Assembly: GCA_046542505.1 (NCBI GenBank)
Contig: JBKHBH010000026.1
Location: 1 to 25,975, forward strand
Length of the DNA stretch: 25,975 bases
Reading direction: 5' to 3'
Source: Thermovirgaceae bacterium
GTDB lineage: Bacteria > Synergistota > Synergistia > Synergistales > Thermovirgaceae
Below, piece by piece: positions 18,001 through 24,000 of this stretch. Position 1 is the first letter of the stretch. Each line of letters begins with the position of its first letter. Position numbers: made by a program.

Positions 18001-21000
18001 GAGAAGCCATTCTGAGGGGTATCTTCAAGTGTGGCAAAATCCTCCGGCAGGGGGAAATCGCCGCGGAAATGGGCGTCAGTCACACCCCGGTCAGGGAAGC
18101 CATCCGTCAGCTCGAGGCTGAAGGCTTTGTAGCGATTATCCCCAACAGGGGCGCCATGGTGACGGGCCTGACCGTGGACGATGCCCGGGAGGTTTTTTCA
18201 ATACGCAAACTCCTTGAATCGGAGGCCCTGCGCCGCGCCCTTCCCGGGCTGGACGAAAAGACCTTGCGGAAGTGCGAGTACATCAACATGGAAATAGGCG
18301 ACGAACAGGATGTTCATACCTGGTGCGGACTGAACTGGGATTTTCACAAGAGCCTGTATGCACCTGCAGAGAGCCCGCGGTTGTTGCAGATGATTCAAAA
18401 CCTTCACTCCAATGTGGACCGCTACTTGCGGTTGTATCTTGAGGTTGAGGATTATCGCAGCATTGGGGTGAGAGAGCATGGTTTGATCCTCGATGCCTGC
18501 AGGAATAAAGACGAATCGGCGGCTATCCGGGCCCTGGAGCTCCACCTGGAGAACTCACGCACTTTTCTCGAGGAATTCCTCGAGAAAGAAGGCTGCTCCG
18601 AAATATCCGAATGTCCCAGATAGGCCGGGAGAAATCCCTGCCTGTCTTTACGTTTTTGAGGCCTCGAACCAGAGGACGATGTCCAAAAGAAGAGAGCGGC
18701 CTTCCAGGATGACGGCGTTCTCTTCCCGGGTCATCGTTATAATCGGTTTTTCGACTCCCTGGGAAGCCAGCACCCCCGCAAGCCATCCCCTCATGAATTT
18801 TTCTGCAATGCCGACGGCGTTTTCGACGGAACCAGCGTCTGCAACGCCTGTAGGCAGATGGATACGGAATCCTCTCCCGTCGGGAAGGGGCAGTATGAAA
18901 ACGCCCTTTCTGACGCTTGTAGCCGCCATCGCTGCGCCTGTGGCATTTGCGACAGGCGATTCAGAAGGGATGATTCCATGAGTTTTCAGCATTCGAGCCG
19001 CTTTTGGGATGAAAGCCCCGGCCGGTGCCCCCATTCCGACGAGGGGAACGTGCAAGGCGGCTTCCATTGAAACTGGTTCATTCTCTTTTCGACCGGATAG
19101 CATCCTTTCCGACAAGTTATTCAGAAAAAGCCGGTCTGATTGTGAAAATCCGTGCCGCTCGAGGATTTCCTCGAGGACGAACCGGGCAAGATGCTTGCTG
19201 ACAGCCCATATCACCTCACGGGAAAAATCCTCCCCTTTCTGGAACCCGCCGAGACGGGCCATGAGGCAGGCGGCGTCGCGAGATACCCCGCCATCGCCGA
19301 AAGGCAGTTTCCCCAGCGCGGCGAGTGCATCAGTGGGCGTGAAGGCGGCCAGCTCAAACACGCCGGCGCGCACCAGGTTCATAATTTTTTCCGTGCCACC
19401 GTGGTCCTGGAGTTCTGCAACAGCCTCGGTCAGCGTGATGACCCCTGCATCGCGCACCCTGCCGAGAATGTTTTTCTCCAGGATGCTGGCTCCGGCCAGG
19501 GCCTTCGCTCCGGCCAAAAGAAAGACTGGAGCTTTCGGGGTATTGCCCTTTTGCCCGGCACCCGTTTCTACCATTGAAGGGACAGCTGTAATTCCTGTTT
19601 CAGTGAGAAGGCACAGCGGAACCGCCCGCAGGGGACCAAAGCTTAATGCCTTTTTCGATGGCCCGATATGAACCTGGCTGTCCCCTCCAAGGGCGATTGT
19701 CCGGATATCGATCGATGGGGCCATGACCTTGTAACGCCCCACCATTACGCCTTTCGTGCTGATCACGGGTGAGCCTTTCCCCAAAAAGGCCATGTCAGTG
19801 GTGGTACCGCCCATGTCAAGTGCGACGAAGCTTTTGCTGGAAGATTCCGGGGCAAGGTGGGCAGCACCGGCGATACTTGCGGCAGGTCCCGAGAGTATTG
19901 TCTCCACGGGCCGCTCTTTTGCCCATGCCGAACTCATGAGACTGCCGTCTCCCCGGACAACGTAAACAGGGGCGTGGATCCCGGCGCCTGCGAAAGTTTC
20001 CTGCATGGCATCGAGCCATTCCCGGACCGTCGGTACGAGGCCTGCATTCAACGCCGCTGTGGAGGCCCTTGCCATGGTGTTGAGCTCTCCTGACAGTTCA
20101 TGTCCGCAGCTGCAAGGCAGGTTGGAGCTCTCGTTGATAATGGCCCTGGCGCGGATTTCATGGTCTGGATTGCGGTTTCCAAAAAGGGATGAGATGGCGA
20201 AAGCCTCGACCCGCTCTCTCCAGAAAACGGCCGTATTCCGTATCCTTTTTTCGTCAAGAGGGGCGCTTTCCTTCCCGTGGCGGTTATGTCCCCCATCAAT
20301 GAAGACCACGTTATGCGTGGGGAGCGAGTCCCCGAAGCTCCACGCTTCGAAGGAATTCCTTTCGTAGCCGATGAGGACGAGGCAGACAGGGCGCATGCGC
20401 TCTTCCACGATGGCGTTCGTTGCCAGCGTTGTGGAAAGGTTGACGGCGGAAGCCCGAACAGCGGAAGGCTCGGTGCTGATAAGTTTTTCGAGGCATTTGC
20501 CTATGGAAAGACAAAGGTCATTTCTGTCTGTGCGCACCTTCGACCAGGCGATAACCCTTCCTGACGGGACATCCATGAGCACTGCGTCAGTGAAAGTCCC
20601 TCCCGTGTCCACTCCGATGACGGTCTTCCCGCCTTGCATGGTCATTTCTACCTCCAGACCCTTGATGCGGCTGCAAGGAAATCACCGGGACCGCTGCAGG
20701 TGTAAAAACCCATTTCCTTCAGTTTTTCTTCCACATCGACAGGAAGGTCCTCATCGTCAATTTTCTGATTCAATACACCTCCCATGAAAACGGGTACGTG
20801 CAAATTCCGTTCTTCGAGTTCTTCCTTCAGGGCGTGGGCGTACTCCAGAGCCATGCCGTTGTGAGTGCTAAGAAGGACTGCTTCAGCGCCTTCCTGTGCA
20901 ACCCGCATGGCGATTTCGTCGGGGTTTCTCTCGGGACCTTCGTTGTGGACCAGTGCTCCGGCGTACCTGAGAAGACGCTCCATGACAAAGAGTGCGTGTT

Positions 21001-24000
21001 CGTGGACGTCTGTGGATGCCACAACGAGGACGCGGCCGGCGAGGGCTGCCCGCGATACCGGTTGAGCGAAGCTCTCCTGGGATTTTTCGACGCACCGCAA
21101 TGAGTGTTCAAAGACGTCATTGGGGATGACCGCTTCACGGCCCCGGAGGGATGCAGGGTTCCTTTTCCCGGCGCCGAAGGTTTCCTCGAAGGAAGCCGGA
21201 CCGAGACGCTTCAGAACATACAGGAGTTGGACGGGATCCCTGAGGTCGACTCCTGCTTCTTTGAGCCCCGAAAGGGCGTTTCGGAAAACCTCGCTGCCTT
21301 TTTCGACGACAGTTTGCGCAAAGGCACGAGGCGCCGAAAAGTCGAAGGACGGAAAGGCCCGGCGTGCCGTCGATTCCATACGACGACCGAAAATTTGGGC
21401 TTCGATGATTTCGTCAAGAGAAGGCACCCGGATGGCTTCCGTCGAGGGAATGGAGAGCACGGCATGGCCGGTGGGGCATTCGAGCTGGGTCAGGATGTCC
21501 CAAAGGAGGGTTTCCGCCACAACGGCGCGGTTCCAGGCGAAATCCCGCGTGAAGGATATGGTGTCTCCATAGACCATTGACCCGATGCACTCGCCTTCGT
21601 GGATTTGCTGGAGGGCGAAAATCCATCCGGACCTTTTTACAGGGTCGGATACAAGTCCTCCGACGCAATGGGCCAGCTTGGCCCCCAGGAGTTCTTCGAC
21701 AATATGGCGTTCGAGCATCGCCCATCCGGCGATGGTGGCACAGTCCGAAAAAAGGGCGCCCATGCCGTCGTCGAGATAGGAGTGCACGAGTGTCCCTTTG
21801 CTTCTGAGCGCTCCCATGAGCGAGATCGCCTTCACCGTTTCCACCGTGGTAAAGGCCGTGTCCCGCCATCCCGGAGCCTCGTGGGAAAAAAACTGCGAGA
21901 GGTTGCCTATGGTGGTGATTCCCGCGCCAAGGGCGTAGATCGTGTTTTCCGTGGACGCAGGGAAACCGATCATAAAATCACCCATGTGGGGCTGGATCGG
22001 CGCTGCTTTTCCCACGGCCGCCCAATCCTCGGGGCTTTCCAAGAGTGGGCCCGTCTCGGCTGGCGCTTTCCTGCGGAGGTCCGCCGGAAGTGCCATCCGA
22101 CGGTCAAGGCAAATCCCTGCCCTGTCCTGCAGGTAGCCTTCGGAAGCCAAAGCGGCGTGTAGGTGCTTGAGCCCTCTTTCGGTTTCCCTCCAGGAACTCA
22201 TTCCGATATGGCAGTGGTACATGATCCGTTTTTCCTTCATGCATTGCCTCTTGTATTCTTCCTCGGAGTCAACTCCGAAGGCGTCCATGAAGGCTGTCCT
22301 CCCTACCACTGTTTCCTTCGCGAGGTTCCTGCCCTCGTCCACGATGGTTTTTCCGGGAGGCAATGGGGTGTCGAGACTCTTGCGGATTTTCCGGAAGGTT
22401 TCTTCTGTGGCCATCTCAGGTCATCCTTTCCAAGGTGAAAAGGGATCTCGGAACATGGGATCAGTATATTATAATCCTATAATAATATAAATAGTTTTTG
22501 CGCTTCCTCCCGGCACCTGGTCGCAGGACGGTTTTATGCCATATTCAGTGTCACGATCGCCTGCTCAAGGCTTGTCGAGGGGGTACCCTGTCCTGCCGCG
22601 GGGAACCCTCGAGATAAACCCGTCATGCCTGTTGACGCCAAGCCGCAACGCTTCAGGACGAGCTTGACATGATCATGATGGAGGAGCCGCCGGCACGATC
22701 CTGAAGTGTGGAAAACTTCCCATGCCGGTGCGTCCTCCGCCTTTACCGCAGCCAAAGATGTCACCCCTGACTGGATACAGGCAAAGGAAGAAAATCGGGG
22801 CCTTATTGTGGGGTATCGCATGATTCTGGAAAAGACAAATGAAGCTTTGGCGTGGACGAAAAATAACGGCGACGATGTGGATAAAATAGCGATCTGGTTT
22901 TTGAAGGAAAACACCGACTTGCGGCATCAATGGGTTGAGGAGGAAGAAAAGATCAAGCCGAGTGAAAAAGCCCTGAAGACGGCGTCCTAGATAGAATGAT
23001 TGACAGAGTTTTTGTATTACAGGGGCCGCCTGGGGCGGCCCTTTTTACGGTCCCTCAAAAAGATCAGTTTGTCCTGGAACAGGTATTTCCCTTCCCGGGG
23101 CTGGGACAATACAATGGCACGGACAGGGTAGGGAGATGAGGTGTCTGGAATGAAAGACAAGATGCGATGTTTGAAGGAAGAGTTGTTCGAAGCTGTTGAG
23201 AAGCATTCACCAAAGGCGATAGCCCTGAGCGATCATCTCGCGGCAAACCCCGAACCCGGCGACGAGGAGTTCGAATCGAGCAGATTGCATGCAGACCTCC
23301 TGAGGTTGGCCGGTTTCGAGGTGGAATACCCTTTTGCCGGAATCGCGACGGCTTTTCGGGCCAAAAGGGGGAAGGGGTCGTCGAAAGTGGCCTTTCTCGC
23401 GGAATATGACGCGCTGCCCGAAATCGGCCATGCCTGCGGGCACAATCTTTCGGGCGCCATGTCGACTTTGGCCGGGATTGCCCTTGCTTCGGTGTCGGAT
23501 GAACTCGACGGAGAAATACAAGTCATTGGCACGCCTGCCGAAGAGACCAACGGGGCCAAGGTCGCCATGTCGGAAAAGGGTGTTTTCGACGACCTGGACC
23601 TGGCGCTCACGCTTCATTGCTCCGGCGGCGCCTCCTTTGTCCCTTACGAAAGCCTGGCCGTGGACGCTCTGGAATTTGTCTTTACCGGGAAGACAGCTCA
23701 CGCCTCGGCTTCGCCCTGGATGGGGAAAAACGCCCTCAACGGCGTGCAGCTCTTTTTTCATGCCCTGGACATGCTCCGGCAGCATGTCCCGCCTGAGGTC
23801 AGGATGCACGGGATCATCACCTCCGGTGGTGAGGCCCCGAATATCGTTCCCGAAAAGGCTGTAGCGAAGTTTTACTTCCGAGCCCCGAAGCGGCCGATGG
23901 TGAATGAGATCGTGGCAAAGGCGAAAAATTGCGCGAGAGGAGCGGCCCTTGCCACCGAAACGGACGTCCGGTGGGACACGGCGGAGATCAGTTTCGAAGA

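Follow-up and report, generated by a model that had tools for sequence, protein, structure and literature searches.

Which reaction is catalysed by the single-chain B12 enzyme encoded at this Thermovirgaceae locus, and what role is played by the ATP-binding protein encoded next to it? The locus lies within the window, that is, the whole stretch of 25,975 nucleotides analysed here. Genomic analysis of the window, of the genome it comes from and of related loci leads to a main reading, given a probability of roughly one half: the enzyme (c0) would be an adenosylcobalamin (AdoCbl)-dependent dehydratase, whose presumed substrate is a 4-hydroxyproline isomer or derivative and whose product is delta-1-pyrroline-5-carboxylate (P5C), with an ATP-dependent ASKHA protein as its chaperone or reactivase.

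The B12 enzyme and its fold

The c0 gene (positions 20648-22414, minus strand) encodes a protein of 588 residues with two domains; (i) a GlmE/KamD-like TIM barrel of the mutase substrate-domain type (residues about 17-440, nt 21095-22366); (ii) a C-terminal B12 Rossmann domain (residues about 458-588, nt 20651-21043). Its sole Pfam match is PF02310, with 38.3 bits against a cut-off of 32.1. The DxHxxG...SxL...GG signature of the Rossmann domain is represented by D469-x-H471-x-x-A474, S516 and G545-G546; in an alignment of 40 sequences D469, H471, S516 and G546 are each conserved in 39 rows and G545 in all 40. The earlier note had listed an intact DxHxxG, which needs correction: the cobalt-ligand motif reads D-V-H-E-H-A, with alanine at the sixth position in 37 of the 40 sequences, and sister-clade members of the family carry DVHEFG. 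Alanine in the place of the canonical glycine counts against the dehydratase reading.

The nearest folds are those of GlmE and KamD, and MetH and MtaC are found among the weaker fold matches. At the sequence level, the glutamate mutase E family PF06368 gave no match at E<=0.01, and profile-profile alignment with GlmE (hhalign) reached a probability of 1.5%. These data support the view, also taken in the earlier note, that c0 represents a new sequence family with the two-domain architecture of His-on AdoCbl isomerases such as GlmES, MCM and KamDE. The cofactor is probably AdoCbl and not methylcobalamin, as indicated indirectly by the GlmL partners and by a PduO-type adenosyltransferase encoded in the same genome. 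A corrinoid (methylcobalamin) methyltransferase, with the ASKHA protein as its reductive activase, appears very improbable, even though domains of the DxHxxG type are common to methyltransferase corrinoid proteins, MetH and MtaC are weaker fold matches and MttB genes occur in 4 c0 loci. We take the PLP lysine of lysine and ornithine aminomutases to lie 11 residues past the cobalt-ligand histidine; because this position is occupied in c0 by Leu482, and PF02310 alone matches, a PLP-dependent aminomutase is unlikely.

Some 50 nt before the start codon of c0 lie promoter-like hexamers (TTTATA-17-TATACT, 22463-22491, minus strand), and an inverted repeat, GATCCCATGTTCCGAGATC and GGAAAGGA, precedes the ATG. 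The hexamers are weak evidence of a promoter, since the number of such sites (2, against 2.4 expected from shuffled sequences) shows no excess. The family is carried by aerobic Alpha- and Gammaproteobacteria among others, and cultured carriers include Maritalea porphyrae, Sulfitobacter sp., Rhizobium setariae and Sinanaerobacter chloroacetimidivorans.

The adjoining ASKHA protein

The operon pair reported in the earlier note is real: the gene for a 665-aa hydantoinase-A-type ASKHA protein (18648-20645, minus strand) starts 2 nt past the c0 stop and is preceded by GGAGG. The protein possesses Hydant_A_N and Hydantoinase_A domains (PF01968, 122.5 bits; PF05378, 112.7 bits) with the ASKHA phosphate-binding motifs. 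The ATP-binding motifs DTGGT and D277-x-GGTT-x-D284 are intact, and D13, G15, G16, T17, D277, G279, G280, T281 and T282 are invariant in an alignment of 30 sequences. The match to PF01968 covers only profile positions 1-145 of 291, PF19278 does not match, and Pfam analysis revealed no HyuB in the window; a separate HyuA/HyuB pair is encoded on contig C23 of the same genome. The protein falls outside the GlmL/MutL family, with 18.7 bits for PF13941 (cut-off 27) and 20.2 bits for NF040745 (cut-off 475).

The broader idea of an ASKHA partner, put forward in the earlier note, holds in that such proteins recur beside c0. In the sister clade the gene order is GlmL-family protein, c0-family gene and ProC; bona fide GlmL genes lie directly upstream of c0 in five of the seven loci having an upstream flank, and one of them exceeds the NCBI GlmL equivalog cut-off (491 against 475 bits). 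In addition, the database protein P0141 is a c0-family member fused to MutL. The hydantoinase-A-type partner itself is lineage-specific, adjoining c0 in 6 of the 73 main-clade loci, each of them from Synergistales. We propose that the 665-aa protein acts as an ATP-dependent chaperone or reactivase of c0. Its family, of roughly 675 aa, is also found away from any c0-family member, which counts against the dehydratase model.

A rival role for this protein is that of a lactam-activating pathway enzyme. The module would then belong to gamma-glutamyl/5-oxoproline metabolism, with c0 acting on a compound related to 5-oxoproline or glutamate. A gamma-glutamylcyclotransferase (GGCT)-like gene is the second commonest neighbour of c0 (22/73 loci) and full 5-oxoprolinase genes occur in 3/73, both left unexplained by the dehydratase model; one or another of a GGCT-like, hydantoinase-A-type ASKHA or 5-oxoprolinase gene adjoins c0 in 31/73. 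The same direction is indicated by an M19 dipeptidase-GGCT fusion in locus L029, by the match of the GGCT-like protein to human GGCT (1.1e-6) and by caprolactamase alpha as the best NCBIfam match (1.3e-36) of the hydantoinase-A-type protein P0002, whose family occurs elsewhere without c0. We nevertheless consider this assignment improbable: no plausible B12 radical reaction was found that would lead from 5-oxoproline to an imine for the reductase described below, GGACT has no match in the genome, the HyuA/HyuB pair on C23 is distinct, and the position beside c0 is taken in the sister clade by a GlmL protein.

Conserved neighbours and the hydroxyproline context

The commonest partner of c0 is a P5C-reductase-like gene (c1; 16940-17746, plus strand), whose open reading frame opens at 16775. 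An alignment puts the likely start at Met56 (16940) and shows the TP(G/A)G-x-S/T loop. The protein has P5CR dimerisation and NADP-binding domains (PF14748, 64.6 bits; PF03807, 47.6 bits), and scores 157.5 bits with the proC equivalog TIGR00112, under the cut-off of 196.75. In 43 of 73 loci such a gene is found no more than 600 bp from c0, and 50 of the 73 have one within 8 kb; the linkage extends over eight taxon groups. Among the neighbours, c1 is the functional partner of c0 that is conserved from phylum to phylum. Its absence within 8 kb from 9 of the 12 gammaproteobacterial loci counts against the dehydratase model.

A GntR/FCD-family regulator (17868-18623, plus strand; PF07729 and PF00392) is encoded between the c1 and c0 operons, and its cluster (c4) was found by HMM beside c0 in 16 loci. 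According to Pfam, the upstream operon ending in c1 (8236-16853, plus strand) encodes 2-oxoacid:ferredoxin oxidoreductase gamma, alpha and beta subunits, 3-hydroxyacyl-CoA dehydrogenase, an AbfD-like protein of the 4-hydroxybutyryl-CoA dehydratase type, crotonase, DUF362 and thiolase, and probably forms an oxidative branch for the carbon skeleton. AbfD-like, DUF362 and POR-subunit genes also adjoin GlmL-c0 in a Clostridia genome (G348), their products being 61%, 60% and 36-38% identical to those encoded in the window, and thiolase and DUF362 recur in loci L001 and L003. Divergent from c0 lies an M20 amidohydrolase gene (23141-24343, plus strand; TIGR01891, 198.6 bits, above the 153.75 cut-off), whose cluster (c30) was found by HMM near c0 in 5 loci.

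The sister clade provides the hydroxyproline context. Its operons are of two types; (i) c0 with an orthologue of HplG, the hydroxy-D-proline C-N lyase, and an OrtAB-like pair; (ii) a B12-ProC-proline-racemase-like-transporter arrangement. The clade-A reductase passes the proC equivalog with 217.9 bits. A genuine HypD, with 1303 bits for NF043068 (cut-off 1100), is already encoded in the genome of the window itself, as is an HpyG orthologue adjoined by a P5CR-like gene, so that a plain trans-4-hydroxy-L-proline dehydratase role for c0 would be redundant.

The earlier note had favoured a mutase, of the carbon-skeleton or amino type, with a small acid as substrate. Instead, the P5C-reductase-like partner and the hydroxyproline genes, both overlooked there, point to a reaction of the eliminase type with a cyclic imine as product. 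An alternative that follows the model of the earlier note, possible but rather unlikely, is a carbon-skeleton mutase, aminomutase or other eliminase whose substrate is a different amino acid and whose product cyclises to an imine reduced by c1; examples are the conversion of 5-hydroxylysine to piperideine-6-carboxylate or 2-methyl-pyrroline-5-carboxylate, or an ornithine- or lysine-derived substrate. It would fit the closeness of the fold to GlmE and KamD, and GlmL relatives accompany ornithine degradation too, the GlmL neighbours scoring 299-343 bits with NF040744 (below its cut-off of 600). Locus L016 carries, between c0 and c1, a fused phosphotransferase/class-III aminotransferase, presumably resembling hydroxylysine kinase plus phospho-lyase, while a saccharopine-dehydrogenase-like gene and an OCD-family gene occur in L017 and L014. 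This alternative is opposed by Leu482, by the lack of any Pfam aminomutase domain match, by the proC-equivalog rank of the clade-A reductase, and by the racemase, HplG and prolidase context, which is specific to proline and hydroxyproline.

The OrtA/OrtB-like pair directly following c0 in L150, L151 and L155 suggests a different outcome, in which c0 is a B12 counterpart of HplG: C-N cleavage of the ethanolamine-ammonia-lyase type would open the 4-hydroxyproline ring to 2-amino-4-ketopentanoate, which OrtAB would then cleave. Amino-alcohol C-N cleavage has strong precedent in B12 chemistry. The genome of the window has OrtA/OrtB (on contig C40, beside an alanine racemase; OrtB is 61% identical to the L150 protein) but no HplG orthologue, the best matches being 34% and 31% identical, and none of its six PF02310 matches is carried by a reading frame of roughly 730 aa, which we take to be the size of OraE. 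However, OrtA and OrtB are absent from the c0 surroundings in all 73 main-clade loci, the pair in L150 is accounted for by HplG itself, and P5C reductase, the conserved partner, has no role for 2-amino-4-ketopentanoate. Further points against the proposal, which seems doubtful, are the completeness of the genome (93.5%) and the small size of C40, a fragment of 6 kb.

The proposed reaction and known systems

The linkage of c0 to P5C reductase and its place in hydroxyproline operons make it about as likely as not that c0 does with B12 what the oxygen-sensitive hydroxyproline dehydratases do. In the proposed mechanism, the 5'-deoxyadenosyl radical would take a hydrogen from C5, adjoining the ring nitrogen of hydroxyproline; the C4 hydroxyl would migrate or leave and the hydrogen would be given back, yielding P5C or an N-substituted analogue. 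This product would be reduced to proline by c1. Fermenters would pass the proline on to proline racemase and Stickland reduction, aerobes to ordinary proline catabolism. In Synergistales the ASKHA protein, and in the sister clade GlmL, would spend ATP on loading the cofactor or on replacing it when damaged.

On a broader reading, slightly less probable than even, c0 would found the first family of AdoCbl-dependent hydroxyproline dehydratases, an oxygen-tolerant His-on twin of glycyl-radical HypD/HpyG/HpzG. It would provide a two-step route from hydroxyproline via P5C to proline in sediment Desulfobacterales, Chloroflexota, Synergistales and marine Proteobacteria, with diverged paralogues of further eliminase or isomerase specificities, and no earlier eliminase would share its mutase-type barrel-plus-Rossmann scaffold. 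To our knowledge, all His-on enzymes of this architecture are mutases or aminomutases, which counts against the dehydratase model, and the AdoCbl isomerases and eliminases described so far cover only about a dozen reactions. No B12 hydroxyproline dehydratase was found in print, and the eLife 2020 HypD paper states that dehydration of hydroxyproline to P5C is without precedent in B12 enzymology, another point against the model.

Compared with glutamate mutase (GlmE/GlmS with GlmL, a MutL protein), c0 is a single chain without a methylaspartase context. The glutamate-binding arginines R66, R100 and R149, invariant in the GlmE alignment, and E171, nearly invariant there, are not alignable to c0, and neither GlmE nor MutL has a match in the genome of the window. 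From lysine 5,6-aminomutase (KamDE) and ornithine 4,5-aminomutase (OraSE) the enzyme differs in lacking Pfam aminomutase domains, in the leucine at the presumed PLP-lysine position and in its downstream enzymes. 2-Methyleneglutarate mutase (Mgm, with MgmL) resembles c0 in being one chain of comparable size, with the B12 domain at its C-terminus and a MutL-like protein encoded nearby. That c0 is this mutase or its orthologue, known biochemically and absent from the libraries used, is nonetheless hardly credible. The genomic context differs, with P5C reductase and hydroxyproline genes conserved and no nicotinate-pathway genes among the annotated neighbours, and c0 is widespread, whereas Zhang et al. 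2009 (PMC2667541) surveyed sequenced genomes without finding this mutase in any of them.

The proposed chemistry, a 1,2-shift or elimination next to a heteroatom, resembles that of the AdoCbl eliminases diol/glycerol dehydratase and ethanolamine ammonia-lyase. These enzymes need ATP-dependent ASKHA-type reactivases (DdrAB, EutA), but are base-on and differ in subunit architecture, and none of them is among the listed fold matches of c0. The closest functional analogues would be the glycyl-radical enzymes HypD, HpyG, HpzG and HplG, which dehydrate hydroxyprolines to P5C-type imines (PMC13450708); an HplG orthologue shares an operon with c0, while the proteins are not homologous and differ in fold and cofactor (glycyl radical versus B12). 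Being oxygen-sensitive, the glycyl-radical enzymes would probably fail in the aerobic Alpha- and Gammaproteobacteria that carry c0. If the dehydratase reading is true, c0 defines a new family of substrate-binding barrels whose paralogues differ in specificity, and it would explain how bacteria that do not ferment, or are aerobic, could channel collagen-, algal- or osmolyte-derived hydroxyprolines straight to proline. The B12 route would also complete a pattern, since for most reactions of glycyl-radical eliminases a B12 twin exists.

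Gene pair and window layout

The genome that holds the window is an assembly of 2.14 Mb (93.5% complete, 142 contigs), in which the window makes up the whole of contig C51. The gene of the B12 enzyme, here called c0 (588 residues; 20648-22414, minus strand), is followed by that of a hydantoinase-A-type ASKHA protein (665 residues; 18648-20645, minus strand). In Pfam, c0 is matched by a B12-binding domain alone (residues 462-548) and the ASKHA protein by Hydant_A_N and the first half of Hydantoinase_A; the NCBIfam scan of both proteins gave nothing specific beyond this. The junction of the two genes consists of TAG, two bases and ATG, with GGAGG inside the final codons of c0, and from this sequence they are almost certainly carried on one transcript and coupled in translation. 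Upstream of c0 there is an AT-rich promoter-like stretch and a ribosome-binding site; the promoter scan did not rise above chance. No Rfam family matched the window at gathering score, hence no cobalamin riboswitch was found. A 126-residue ORF in the intergenic region between c0 and the M20 gene (22534-22914, minus strand) belongs to no family, has a low-complexity, implausible translation and is probably spurious.

The window also encodes LarB of the nickel-pincer cofactor pathway (2534-3382, minus strand; above the equivalog cut-off), a protein matching the ATC_hydrolase family (1841-2407, minus strand), and a fused TRAP DctQM protein (5029-6525), adjoined by a 364-residue ORF that neither Pfam nor NCBIfam matches (6896-7990, plus strand).

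Fold, motif and sequence relatives of c0

The AlphaFold2 model of c0, built from an alignment of 40 sequences, reached a pLDDT of 92.8 and a pTM of 0.92. Foldseek recovered with it the fold relatives listed in the earlier note: methylmalonyl-CoA mutase (MCM; E about 4e-12), then ornithine aminomutase, GlmE and lysine aminomutase. At the level of sequence the N-terminal domain is an orphan: (i) its profile search of the PDB returned nothing real at E<=10; (ii) hhalign of the c0 family with the GlmE alignment gave a probability of 1.5%, that is no match; (iii) hhalign of the MCM large subunit with the c0 family gave no match either. The ESM Atlas yielded only clusters that are unnamed or annotated as B12-binding.

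The DxHxxG motif formerly ascribed to c0 is present in part: Asp469 and His471 are in place, but the sixth position is Ala474 (D469-V-H471-E-H-A474), with alanine in 37 and glycine in two of the 40 aligned sequences. Members of the sister clade and paralogues carry DxHxxG. Ser516 and Gly545-Gly546 are conserved in the alignment, and Leu482 occupies what we take to be the position of the PLP lysine in lysine and ornithine aminomutases. The architecture, together with the GlmL partners described below, argues for an adenosylcobalamin radical enzyme. Two relatives could be true fusions or artefacts of assembly or gene calling, namely P0141 (857 residues), in which c0 is joined to the N-terminal portion of MutL, and P0204 (608 residues), with a Hydant_A_N segment ahead of the c0 barrel.

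Neighbours of c0 and its sister clade

The neighbourhood of c0 was compared in 73 loci (72 from reference genomes and the window), in which ORFs were called and clustered and all six frames were re-scanned with the cluster HMMs. The commonest neighbour is a reductase of the pyrroline-5-carboxylate (P5C) type, c1, matched by P5CR_dimer and F420_oxidored and found no more than 600 bp from c0 in 43 loci and no more than 8 kb away in 50. Restricting the count to the 55 loci whose flanks reach at least 1 kb either way leaves 31 with an adjacent c1 and 38 with one inside 8 kb, drawn from eight taxon groups. The window has c1 as the final gene of a convergent operon (ORF 16775-17746, plus strand, likely start 16940) and keeps the TPxG-x-S/T loop, presumably the binder of the P5C carboxylate. 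Also recurrent around c0 are Dpp/Opp-type ABC transporters, a GntR/FCD regulator, SDRs and M20 peptidases, as well as a GGCT-like gamma-glutamylcyclotransferase (22 loci; match to human GGCT at 1.1e-6). Proline-racemase-family genes with the Cys/Cys pair lie within 8 kb in nine of the 73 loci, MttB methyltransferases are near c0 in four and a full 5-oxoprolinase in three. Two prolidase-like M24 genes, an X-Pro dipeptidyl peptidase, an M19-GGCT fusion, an SSF symporter and DAO-family oxidases occur in c0 loci too. The fusion (L029, 10572-12224) combines an M19 dipeptidase with a GGCT-like domain downstream of c0-c1, and in L016 (9702-12071) a phosphotransferase (APH) fused to a class-III aminotransferase stands between c0 and c1.

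The hydantoinase-A-type ASKHA gene adjoins c0 in only six of the 73 loci, all of Synergistales. Its product is proposed to be the reactivase of c0, by analogy and from the presence of GlmL in its place in the sister clade. The family, of about 675 residues, has other settings too, with no c0 at hand: next to MttB, RACo and OCD genes, next to EutH and HGD-D genes, and next to a B12-radical-SAM gene. In an Anaerolineae locus (L135, G405:C15, 3034-13240), a 703-residue relative (32% identity) lies between two MttB genes and a GntR regulator; next come genes for a corrinoid activase of the RACo type and an OCD-family protein, and no c0 is nearby. Two other candidates for accessory ORFs have no relation to the ASKHA protein: c38 encodes a membrane protein, and c120 is rich in Arg and read in the wrong frame.

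In a maximum-likelihood tree the sister clade, clade A, stands beside the main clade containing the window. Linkage to the reductase is shared by the two clades, whereas the Synergistales subclade alone has the hydantoinase-type ASKHA gene; loci lacking the reductase fall mostly in one gammaproteobacterial subclade. The Eubacterium MAG containing L065 has four c0 paralogues, one of which, at 35% identity to c0, lies between a full-length GlmL-family gene and a reductase passing the NCBI proC equivalog cut-off. The metagenome scan with clade A yielded seven loci. The order in L150 is GRE (glycyl-radical enzyme), SNF transporter, GlmL, c0, a 128-residue ORF, a 471-residue PLP fold-II protein and ProC; the 128/471 pair we take, from size, fold type and position, to be OrtA/OrtB (2-amino-4-ketopentanoate thiolase). 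The GRE of L150 matches HplG (PDB 7vua) over its full length at 1088 bits, with the runner-up at 520. L151 and L153 repeat this order, L155 reads c0-128-471-ProC, and L152 and L154 read c0-ProC-proline-racemase-like-SNF, with the Cys/Cys pair confirmed in L152. GlmL lies immediately upstream of c0 in five of the seven clade-A loci with upstream flank (L091, L140, L150, L151 and L153, not L152 or L154), and ProC about 3 kb or less downstream in six of the seven with downstream flank (not L140).

In G348, a sampled Clostridia genome, one operon comprises two transporters of the c38 type, the activase of a GRE, a 785-residue GRE, GlmL (491 bits on NF040745, cut-off 475) and c0; after it come DUF362, POR subunits and an AbfD-like gene, at 60%, 36-38% and 61% identity to the window proteins. 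The AbfD-like and DUF362 genes lie beside c0 both in the Synergistales-like window (12102-13553 and 14451-15662) and in the Clostridia locus (L140, 2431-3909 and 7139-8347), and look like a horizontally shared module. The same genome encodes two GREs (L140/L142; G348:C1:1786771-1789129 and 1795248-1797611) that are 52% identical to each other, neither with an equivalog in NCBIfam. Of these, the neighbour of GlmL-c0 scores nearly the same against B12-independent glycerol dehydratase (723 bits) as against HplG (680 bits). Two diverged paralogues in L092 (G002:C54, 374-2191 and 8467-10332, both minus strand; 26% identity) have the canonical DxHxxG and other barrel motifs, and probably differ in substrate specificity. 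One has a Hydant_A_N/MutL-like gene fragment downstream, where the contig ends, and a sigma-54 activator on the opposite side; the operon of the other also encodes an aldehyde dehydrogenase, a TPP enzyme, an SSF symporter, an FMN reductase and a class-III aminotransferase.

Proposed reaction and hydroxyproline metabolism of the host

The ancient, near-universal linkage of c0 to a P5C reductase, seen even in minimal c0-ProC-racemase-like-transporter operons, argues that the product of c0 is P5C or a close analogue. Among simple reactions of the B12 type, the only one that could be found to turn an importable amino acid into P5C is the dehydration of a 4-hydroxyproline, and the conserved neighbours thus suggest this reaction for c0. 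The upstream operon of the window (POR, AbfD-like, crotonase, 3-hydroxyacyl-CoA dehydrogenase, thiolase, DUF362) could oxidize part of the carbon, with c1 as a putative reductive branch alongside. The proposed reaction does not account for the GGCT-like and 5-oxoprolinase genes near c0. Genomic context speaks against a reading of c0 as 2-methyleneglutarate mutase (Mgm). In the search for Mgm, the N-domain profile of c0 matched three of 400 sampled Clostridia genomes, each time a close c0-family member, and PF06368 matched 30 of 399 genomes, none with the fused GlmE-B12 form. A weak 575-residue PF06368 match, considered as an Mgm candidate, is an ordinary MCM.

The host specializes in hydroxyproline. 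A bona fide HypD is encoded on C13 (NF043068, 1303 bits, cut-off 1100) and, on C99 (5479-9861; L078, L080), an orthologue of HpyG (PDB 8id1, 1202 bits), for which NCBIfam has no equivalog. The latter is accompanied by an activase-like gene, a P5CR-like gene of the PRK06476 type (246 bits, slightly below the cut-off of 254) and a TRAP binding protein. A proline-racemase-family gene, three Gly_reductase-family genes, MCM with MeaB and a PduO-type adenosyltransferase are present as well, and C40 (306-3397; L157) carries OrtA/OrtB-like genes, then alanine racemase and putative TRAP genes. The 93.5%-complete assembly yielded no orthologue of HplG and no match for GlmE, MutL or GGACT, and none of its six PF02310 matches lies in an ORF of about 730 residues, which we take as the size of OraE.

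HplG was reportedly described by Duan et al. in 2022, and HpyG and HpzG by Jiang et al. in 2024. A search of the literature outside subscription papers turned up neither a hydroxyproline enzyme that depends on B12 nor any account of the c0 family. A 2026 review (PMC13450708) attributes the dehydration of 4-hydroxyproline to P5C to the glycyl-radical enzymes HypD, HpyG and HpzG, and according to the HypD structural paper (PMC7077986) this reaction is without precedent in B12 enzymology. Because the host already carries HypD and HpyG, c0 may serve another hydroxyproline isomer or derivative; alternatively, it may be an oxygen-tolerant duplicate of the function of these two glycyl-radical enzymes.
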